This document shows positions 2,345 through 3,282 of a stretch of DNA of 64,000 nucleotides, piece after piece. The notes below the pieces were generated by a model. It did no database searches and was not told the origin of the DNA. It saw only the letters and a program-made list of their open reading frames with translations. Every line of letters starts with the position of its first letter. Positions within the stretch are counted from its first letter, which is position 1. A program made the translations under genes and the position numbers. The stretch is from Candidatus Sulfomarinibacteraceae bacterium (GTDB lineage Bacteria > Acidobacteriota > Thermoanaerobaculia > Thermoanaerobaculales > Sulfomarinibacteraceae). The stretch covers positions 1,248,001 to 1,312,000 of the forward strand of contig CAWCLO010000001.1 of assembly GCA_963796455.1 (NCBI GenBank). Reading direction: 5' to 3'.

Positions 2345-2600
2345 CACTGCTGTCCAAAACAGATTGTCATGATGTTACCCACCTGACAACACGTGGTTTA
2401 CGGGTTGGTTTTTGGCATTTCCGGTTCGCGGTTGGCACGTACCCGATCCCGATCCCGAATTGCAGCGGCAGCGACAGTGTCCGGCGGCAGCGACAGGGGA
2501 CAGCGAACAGGGACAGCGGTCGGTGTTCAGTGTTCAGCGGCAGCAGCGGCGGCGGCGGCGGCGGCGGCGGCGGCGGCGATCAGGAGTACAGGCGGCGAAG

Positions 2601-2738
2601 TGGCCACCTCCGGGTCGTTCAAAGGAAGGGGTAACCGGTGGGCGGCCGATGTCAAGGACAGGCAGGGTGCAGGGCATCCTTGACATCGGCCACCACACCG
2701 GCTTGTGGGTAGGGGCATGAACGACCCGGAGGTGACCA
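2601..2738 (+). promoter_or_regulatory. Long nested hairpin covering the RBS and start of the four-helix-bundle gene
   Basis: 2601-2621 pairs with 2718-2738 (20/21, including GGAGGT and the A of ATG). 2644-2658 pairs with 2677-2691 (15/15). Confidence 0.75.
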
Positions 2739-3091
2739 TGTCCTCAGCCGCCACGAACACCAACCTCGTTGCCCACTCGAAAGCCCTCGAAGCTGCAGGC
2801 ATCGCGATCAAACTCGTGATGAGGGTTCCGGCTCCTCTGAAGTCGATAGCCGATCAGGTGATCCGTTCAGCAAGTTCGGTCCCTGCGAATCTGGCAGAAG
2901 GGCACGGCCGAGTCGGTAGAGACCGGTCAAACCACTGGAGAATCGCCTACGCCTCGGCGAAAGAGGTCGACAGCCACTTGAAGCTCCTCGCCCATGCCGG
3001 GGCAATCAGCCCGAACAGAGCCAGTGAAGCGATGAAGGCCTTTGATCAGGTGCGTGCAATGACTTGGAGATTGCTCAACCCGAAGTCTTGA
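2738..3091 (+). CDS. Four helix bundle protein (23S rRNA-IVP / TIGR02436 / bAvd-like), 117 aa
   Basis: DQVIRSASSVPANLAEGHGR and IAYASAKEV signature. GGAGGT RBS precedes ATG 2738. Confidence 0.92.
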   Translation: MSSAATNTNLVAHSKALEAAGIAIKLVMRVPAPLKSIADQVIRSASSVPANLAEGHGRVGRDRSNHWRIAYASAKEVDSHLKLLAHAGAISPNRASEAMKAFDQVRAMTWRLLNPKS

Positions 3092-3282
3092 TTTCAGGGC
3101 CCCATGCCAGTCAAACGTGACGCTGACTCCTGTTCGCTGACGCTGAACACTGATTGCTGTTCCCTGTCCCTGACGCTGATCGCTGTCGCCGTCCCTGAAC
3201 GCTATCCGAGACTCTGTCTTGGACAAGAGTGATCCTGCATCCGGATGGTGGGCGTTACAATAGGCGCTCGCAGGAGAAATAC

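Follow-up and report, generated by a model that had tools for sequence, protein, structure and literature searches.

The window, a 64,000-nucleotide stretch of the genome of a Candidatus Sulfomarinibacteraceae bacterium (the source genome, G000; a 10-contig assembly of 90.5% completeness), contains at positions 2345-3231 a unit of 887 bp, flanked by two divergently oriented genes, which encode an acyl-CoA dehydrogenase and an AAA_5 ATPase. As the sequence-only reading had described, the unit is bounded by inverted ends that match at 16 of 19 positions (2345-2363 and 3213-3231) and has one gene of 117 codons inside and no transposase: ORF 2738-3091 stands alone, matching PF05635 (E 4e-15) and TIGR02436 (E 5e-16), and the open reading frames of the unit include no further long one and none for a transposase. 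The left end has three matches in the window, its inverted partner included, against 0.03 expected by chance. The features are the following.

2336..2344, + strand: left copy of the target duplication, 9 bp, ATCCAGTAT, which ends a run of CAGCATC-type heptamers
2345..2363, + strand: terminal inverted repeat (TIR) CACTGCTGTCCAAAACAGA, 17 to 18 of 19 bases identical to the end downstream of the transposase in 11 autonomous IS4-family elements
2345..2445, + strand: left part of the shell, in which a 78-bp stretch has 80% identity with the cassettes of a related genome, G006, at their left end
2442..2600, + strand: left arm, a CCCGAT run followed by a degenerate array of CAGCGR hexamers
2605..2734, + strand: nested hairpin, with a predicted 17-bp outer stem over the ribosome-binding site and an inner helix that covaries across species
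2738..3091, + strand: gene for a 117-aa four-helix-bundle protein of PF05635 / TIGR02436, by profile matches and predicted fold
3110..3205, + strand: right arm, degenerate hexamers in an inverted array, for which pairing with the left arm is predicted
3213..3231, - strand: terminal inverted repeat, 14 to 17 of 19 bases identical to the end upstream of the transposase in autonomous IS4-family elements
3232..3240, + strand: right copy of the target duplication, ATCCTGCAT, matching the left at 7 of 9 positions
20267..20780, + strand: second copy, a 514-bp internal-deletion derivative with both ends and an 8/9 duplication at 20258-20266 and 20781-20789
35009..35145, + strand: third fragment, consisting of the left arm and the first half of the hairpin, with no TIR

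The second copy has the same ends as the first and lacks most of the gene; its flanks had been called unrelated to those of the first, but both copies touch heptamer repeats of the GATGCTG/CAGCATC type. The hexamer arrays are inverted, as had been noticed, but are less strict than was thought, with seven strict CAGCGR units on the left and only two strict YCGCTG units on the right; a looser pattern recognizes nine units in the left arm and eight in the right. Elsewhere in the window, gene-less short tandem arrays of several different units, intergenic and often in inverted pairs, occur at 413-500, 2188-2211, 2308-2344, 4128-4200 and 34830-34885. The AAA_5 ATPase gene is followed by that of a 662-aa protein with a weak DUF5682 match (the two spanning window 3283-6233), and a TACAAT-like box upstream of the ATPase gene, about 25 bp from the end of the cassette, is kept in relatives.

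BLAST of the ends against the source genome located 106 left and 188 right ends, from which 87 pairs were formed; after removal of two mis-paired ones, 85 paired units remained, 32 of 817-895 bp and 53 of 341-724 bp. When the last k bases of the left flank of each unit were compared with the first k of the right flank, identity peaked at k = 9 (0.775, versus 0.509 with shuffled pairing), with 22 of the 85 duplications exact, a proportion that may reflect age or recombination. The 27 units that lie outside the common heptamer arrays gave the same indication (0.728, versus 0.333±0.034 for the control). The two intact-ended units of the window have the duplications ATCCAGTAT/ATCCTGCAT (7/9) and ATGCAAGAT/ATTCAAGAT (8/9). 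The dinucleotide AT that had been taken for the flank on each side is not the true one: at k = 2, identity barely exceeds the control (0.753 versus 0.648), and the AT is explained as the edge of a 9-bp target with a palindromic consensus, AT-N5-AT, present in 63 of the 85 units. Period-7 arrays surround 61 of the 85 units, compared with 2.3% of random sites; such an array, if it contains AT, would supply an AT-N5-AT target at each repeat, and survival of insertions between genes may contribute to the excess.

No empty site was found, either among 16 relatives examined at the neighbouring AAA gene, which are too rearranged or diverged, with synteny kept in G021 only, or in four sequencing runs with thin cover of the flanks, in which no joint skips the unit; it is therefore the duplications that argue for insertion. 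In G021 both flanking genes are kept and the element is absent, the spacer not being alignable by eye, and a joint at 2206-2343 in the runs proved to be the flank of another copy. In G006 an independent cassette (L178, C9:60163-62155) precedes the same AAA_5 gene, facing the other way and at a greater distance from its start, which makes this upstream region a possible hot spot.

The ends are those of autonomous insertion sequences of the IS4 family; ends of a known IS family were an outcome that the sequence-only reading had itself named as refuting its proposal. At least 118 stretches of the genome collection contain the 17-base left end; among the matches listed, 11 are units of about 1.34-1.42 kb with both ends, from several phyla, and five of these 11 have exact 9-bp duplications. 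All five ORFs tested from such units pass the cut-off of the IS4 model NF033592, DUF4372 and DDE_Tnp_1 were found in all three IS4 ORFs tested, and the YREK motif is present in one transposase (L061). Within the same genus, G017 possesses a 1411-bp IS4 element with the ends of the cassette. The published end pattern, size and duplication indicate that the ends are probably of subgroup IS4Sa, for which Table 1 of PMC2266710 gives ends of the form CA------T, a length of 1150-1750 bp and repeats of 8-10 bp, the duplications of the IS4 subgroups as given there ranging from 7 to 13 bp (PMC2266710). The shell is accordingly a mobile insertion cassette, and one that, having IS ends but lacking a transposase, likely moves by means of a borrowed enzyme. 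The proposal of a discrete mobile unit moved in trans is thereby supported, by sharp boundaries common to 85 units, by the 9-bp duplication and by the ends shared with IS4.

A longer element with the same ends and a transposase, which had been suggested as a check, was thus found in other phyla and in G017, but not in the source genome, where neither tblastn, nor a profile of the IS4 ORFs (eight rows, one of which, L067, is an antisense frame), nor PF14294 revealed a cognate transposase in the 90.5% complete assembly. Among 119 genomes of the order, six have a homologue at E 1e-10, and one of them, G017, has an element with these ends; just one of the 24 other genomes of the genus has the cognate transposase. 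It was not found in G006, G021, G008 or G024, all of which carry the ends, and the plasmid collection yielded only short IS4 fragments. Other candidates were rejected as partners, the ends of the cassette being absent from them: the single PF01609 match of the source genome (L001, C7:289607-293101), a 353-aa transposase beside what was judged by eye to be an IS110-like fragment, and the matches of G006 and G014 (L042-L044).

The family comprises 234 loci in the source genome, about 102 kb in all, with 187 loci of at least 150 bp. By an approximate classification of 177 loci, 62 have both TIRs, 57 the right only, 30 the left only, 25 neither and three the right TIR twice; right-ended copies are thus commoner than left-ended ones (57 versus 30, on the same approximate basis), and since only about 62 of the 177 loci have both a left and a right TIR, simple cut-and-paste transposition fails to explain most of them. 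One-ended copies mostly end at the CCCGAT/CCCGTG run of the arm, and many copies that lack the left TIR start at the equivalent of the left arm (2442..2600); by eye, no fixed boundary was found for TIR-less ends. One deletion junction is repeated in four paired units. Units with the right-hand TIR at both ends (C1:610714-611495, C1:371793-372579 and C5:72654-73080) suggest an exchange of arms between or within copies. At C3:12441-14320, some 1.4 kb of other DNA separates a left TIR from what else remains of a deleted cassette.

Comparison with relatives shows that the core of the cassette (arm, hairpin and gene) is separable from its shell. Of the 24 other genomes of the genus, 20 have a match to the core and only four to the left end, and copy number varies from 0 to 60 or more among related genomes; the named records in which similar cassettes occur bear the label Candidatus Sulfomarinibacteraceae. 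In G014 and G008 the same core is found inside GGYTCATCCGGAATT ends with an 8-bp duplication (identity 0.869, with 8 of 21 exact, among the 21 of 27 loci at which both ends were found), autonomous ISL3 elements with similar ends are present in G008 and G017, and the cassettes of another relative, G068, are also in the GGYTCATCCGGAATT (ISL3) shell. The source genome has no PF01610 match and no ISL3-type shell. Conversely, G021 and G008 contain IS4-ended units with other palindromic repeats inside and no gene. In the source genome, all four divergent, single-copy PF05635 genes (C4:1278037-1278486, C10:732941-733378, C1:983104-983469 and C9:2705-3124) are wrapped in inverted tandem arrays of a unit that is different for each (about GAGCAGAG, ATCGCT, GGCTATGG and GGAATTA). 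The occurrence of the core in IS4 and ISL3 shells, together with the array-wrapped divergent genes, suggests that the repeat-armed gene is older than either shell.

Several minor observations concern these relatives. The gene-less IS4-ended units L015 1501-1885 (G021) and L016 1501-1811 (G008) are MITE-like, with REP-like palindromic interiors, and G021 has 16 matches to the ends. A burst of near-identical ISL3-ended cassettes of 822-824 bp lies in AACGTT-type arrays in G008 (L208-L218), several of them differing solely at the TTGACA part of the hairpin, possibly as a sequencing artefact. In G017 an ISL3 element adjoins an ISL3-ended four-helix-bundle cassette with an end apparently common to both (L304 948-3186), an arrangement that is a possible intermediate in shell formation. 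Some of the gene-less arrays of the window share units with the arrays around divergent PF05635 genes.

A perfect 17-bp stem (2605-2621 with 2718-2734) is predicted over the sequence GGAGGT (2728-2733) before the ATG at 2738 (z -6.2), by which the ribosome-binding site is predicted to be buried; an exact 11-base test detected both halves of the stem in 48 of the 52 copies without an indel. In an alignment of 21 sequences from ten genomes, 97.4% of cells pair, eight pairs change on both sides and none of 500 shuffles scored as high, for a set of related sequences in which the pairing fits RNA or single-stranded DNA alike. The covariation is wholly in the inner helix; the outer stem hardly varies and therefore says little on this point. 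The arms are predicted to pair as a long stem (z -5.2 versus 20 shuffles). Rfam gave eight weak matches to the cassette, all far under the gathering scores. The inverted TTGACA in the hairpin was considered as a promoter and rejected, no convincing -10 box being seen by eye.

The protein is predicted to fold (pLDDT 92.9) like Xcc0516 (2GSC) and BT_0352 (2RLD), at TM about 0.8, and, with a weaker match, like Avd, the accessory protein of diversity-generating retroelements, at TM 0.79-0.81 with 9-10% identity; the solved homologues have five chains. PF05635 has been linked to Avd and described as uncharacterised (PMC10053308), and for Avd a pentamer of positive charge, in contact with an RNA element, has been described (bioRxiv 10.1101/2023.10.23.563531). 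By homology to pentameric Xcc0516 and Avd, the likeliest function of the protein would be to bind structured RNA, its own leader hairpin being a candidate.

The gene is intact in 56 of 62 full-length copies of the source genome, 52 of them without an indel and four more intact from the ATG; the other six are frameshifted. The ten copies with indels, those four included, were left out of the codon and linkage tests. No copy among the 62 has a premature stop by substitution, when about 5.6 would be expected from 44 private synonymous changes. Over the 52 copies pN/pS is 0.18, falling to 0.13 for variants in at least three copies and rising to 0.5 for private ones (0.66 at most with strong transition bias); rare variants at four-fold sites in the 52 copies have no such bias (27 transitions and 59 transversions). 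In G068, a start-killing allele is present in 18 of 50 copies examined (of at least 60 matches), on two haplotype backgrounds and down to 80% identity, and may have been spread by transposition, conversion or both. Four of the 50 were left out of the singleton counts; copies with the ATG have 21 non-synonymous versus 27 synonymous private changes, and the null copies gave no significant contrast, with eight private changes, that would indicate relaxed selection.

These alleles bear on the suggestion that the small protein aids its own spread, which is not supported for action in cis: 53 of the 85 paired units are short derivatives, and their duplications are as good as those of long units (7.06 versus 6.84 of 9). 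Because gene-less derivatives and the start-killing allele have spread, the protein is likely not needed in cis and probably does not act there; a role in trans is possible, since the gene is under purifying selection.

Copies in the source genome are near linkage equilibrium and appear to swap pieces extensively. In 52 copies, r2 declines with distance, from 0.15 for sites at most 10 bp apart to 0.026 for those separated by more than 60 bp (permutation p 0.001), and 298 of the 325 pairs among 26 common sites have all four gametes, each in at least three copies (0.92), whereas 40 clonal simulations on the fitted tree gave a four-gamete share of 0.57±0.12, with a maximum of 0.82; long-range r2 is 0.030, versus 0.076±0.009 simulated. 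When pairs within 10 bp are excluded, the distance trend is weaker (-0.067 versus a simulation minimum of -0.056). Among 27 two-ended copies, divergence of the gene does not follow decay of the duplication (rho 0.11, p 0.58), whereas decay of the ends does (rho -0.52, p 0.005), and in the gene tree two-ended and other copies are intermixed. Linkage in G068 also drops with distance, but much less (r2 from 0.45 to 0.25).

The cassette resembles several known systems in part. Mobile insertion cassettes (MIC231 and others; PMC3129680, PMC6542083, PMC2266710) likewise have IS4-family ends, a target duplication, one passenger gene and no transposase, and are presumed to move in trans; the sequence features that characterize them, namely TIRs of a known IS, a duplication of the length of that of the parent (9 bp) and a passenger gene without a transposase, are all found here. 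In contrast to these cassettes, copies number about 100 per genome, a repeat-armed hairpin with a PF05635 gene serves as the passenger and is found in IS4 and ISL3 ends within one genus, this passenger is under purifying selection and appears to recombine among copies, and the ends fit the IS4Sa pattern rather than the CAT of IS231. DUF4372-type IS4 elements (NF033592) have the same ends and 9-bp duplication, and the partner elements have the size, and a partner transposase the YREK motif, of that family, but the cassette itself encodes no DDE transposase with YREK. A MITE is defined as 70-300 bp without coding capacity (PMC3733652), unlike a unit of 887 bp with an intact ORF and derivatives of 341-724 bp.

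The ORF-bearing intervening sequences of 23S rRNA genes in Coxiella and Leptospira (S23p; PMC4990558) share the protein family and a predicted long arm stem, and that of Coxiella also has short tandem repeats near the ORF and poor access to the ribosome-binding site (PMC4990558). The cassette, however, is dispersed at intergenic sites and bounded by IS ends, the one 23S gene of the source genome (C10:140644-143654, 3011 bp) has no copy of the gene within it, and the ORF is conserved, whereas that of Coxiella is reported to be decaying (PMC4990558). Diversity-generating retroelements have in Avd (4DWL, 8UB7) a protein of the same fold beside a structured nucleic-acid element, but identity to Avd is 9-10%, no template and variable repeats were noticed next to the gene, and the assembly of the source genome contains no PF00078 reverse transcriptase. 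REP/REPIN-RAYT systems and TIRtrons (PMC3733652) similarly place a small gene between inverted repeats, with many gene-less repeat copies genome-wide, but here the protein is a four-helix bundle and not an HUH tyrosine transposase, the arms are tandem arrays and the duplications are of the IS type. Judged by its sequence, the cassette falls outside autonomous IS elements, classical MITEs, rRNA intervening sequences and diversity-generating retroelements, and would work like a mobile insertion cassette. The initial impression that it is not a described element holds for the literature searched, mostly open-access papers; the excerpts of PMC8700078 and PMC3733652 do not describe it.

The explanation that we favour, and consider probable, is that a cassette with IS4 ends, a 9-bp duplication and no transposase of its own, which an IS4 enzyme likely moves in trans, carries an older repeat-armed module of which the scattered copies likely go on recombining. 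The ends and duplication length are those of autonomous IS4 elements, and an IS4 transposase, lost or unassembled, would have inserted the cassette mainly at AT-N5-AT, of which period-7 intergenic repeats would supply targets in series. The inner module is separable from the shell, as its ISL3 ends in relatives and the other hairpin repeats in the IS4 shell of G021 and G008 show. Gene conversion, to which the linkage data point, would shuffle the gene in short tracts, swap arms and yield one-ended copies. Selection on the pool of copies would keep the protein functional, in trans or for the host, while the copy that moves would need none. A transposase blind to its cargo is by itself insufficient, leaving purifying selection on about 55 redundant copies unaccounted for. 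TIGR02436/PF05635 is a large family with solved structures and no assigned function, and since the ends of the unit are defined here, its duplication is a recognizable signature, the transposase family has a name, and null and deletion alleles occur naturally among dozens of copies per genome, a role in mobility becomes directly testable. Transposition itself is ordinary; some 60 selected, apparently recombining paralogues in one bacterial chromosome are unusual.

It is possible, although we think it less likely, that the host gains from the protein, for instance as an RNA chaperone or in defence, and that the cassette only multiplies the gene; selection would remove missense copies because mutant subunits would poison a shared pentamer, and nulls would be harmless. 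This is compatible with the favoured explanation, the sole difference being who benefits. Missense changes are depleted even among private variants (0.5 in the source genome; 21 versus 27 in G068), null alleles and deletions spread, and the solved homologues have five chains, all as this proposal would have it, but copy number reaches 0 in some related genomes and 60 or more in others, the ribosome-binding site is predicted to be buried, nonsense changes are missing too in the source genome, and the contrast between null and intact copies of G068 comprises eight private changes and is not significant.

A broader and doubtful proposition is that the four-helix-bundle genes of the IVS/Avd family provide the factor that serves, in trans, a class of repeat-armed modules not yet described, each protein subfamily with its own inverted short-repeat arms, in which arm-bounded DNA is copied or converted via a structured RNA or single-strand intermediate. 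If true, it would explain why about 60 copies recombine almost freely, why gene-less repeat arrays occur genome-wide, why IS4 and ISL3 ends have captured such modules repeatedly, and how rRNA intervening sequences with an ORF, whose derivation from mobile DNA is a hypothesis (PMC4990558), arose.

We regard as improbable the related idea that the repeat-armed module is itself mobile, the protein acting in trans, in the manner of RAYT on REPINs, to copy arm-bounded modules, gene-bearing or gene-less, by way of RNA or single-stranded DNA into repeat arrays already in place, with IS shells hitch-hiking later. It would accommodate the four divergent PF05635 genes in inverted short tandem arrays with a unit of their own, the presence of the core in two unrelated shells and, at most loci, with a single TIR or none, the fine-scale mosaicism among copies, the conserved covarying hairpin, the fold common to the retroelement accessory protein Avd (bioRxiv 10.1101/2023.10.23.563531) and the heptamer repeats that likewise precede the ORF in the Coxiella intervening sequence (PMC4990558). 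Against it stand the lack of an RVT_1 (PF00078) match in the assembly of the source genome, the TIR-less ends, for which no fixed boundary was found by eye, and the burst of 822-824-bp copies in G008, which has IS ends and duplications, as action of a transposase predicts. To our knowledge, moreover, no catalytic activity is known for this four-helix-bundle fold.

That the protein binds its own element and helps that very copy to move is highly unlikely: a mobility gene acting in cis would indeed be expected to show purifying selection among its paralogous copies, but most paired units are short derivatives with duplications as good as those of long units, one deletion junction recurs in four of them, more than a third of the G068 copies examined have the start-killing allele, and gene-less IS4-ended units are multi-copy in G021. 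It is just as hard to believe that the shell is an ordinary one and that the assembly or polishing of a repeat-rich metagenome has only simulated recombination among the copies, for while the assembly has ten contigs at 90.5% completeness, the small indels of six copies could be sequencing errors and recurrent mutation can mimic four-gamete patterns, the copies are about 10% different with unique flanks, simulations with rate variation fall short of the observed values, a three-base block (20 versus 30 copies) is unlinked to a site 34 bp away, and an independent run yielded a contig identical to the window copy over 3007-3222.
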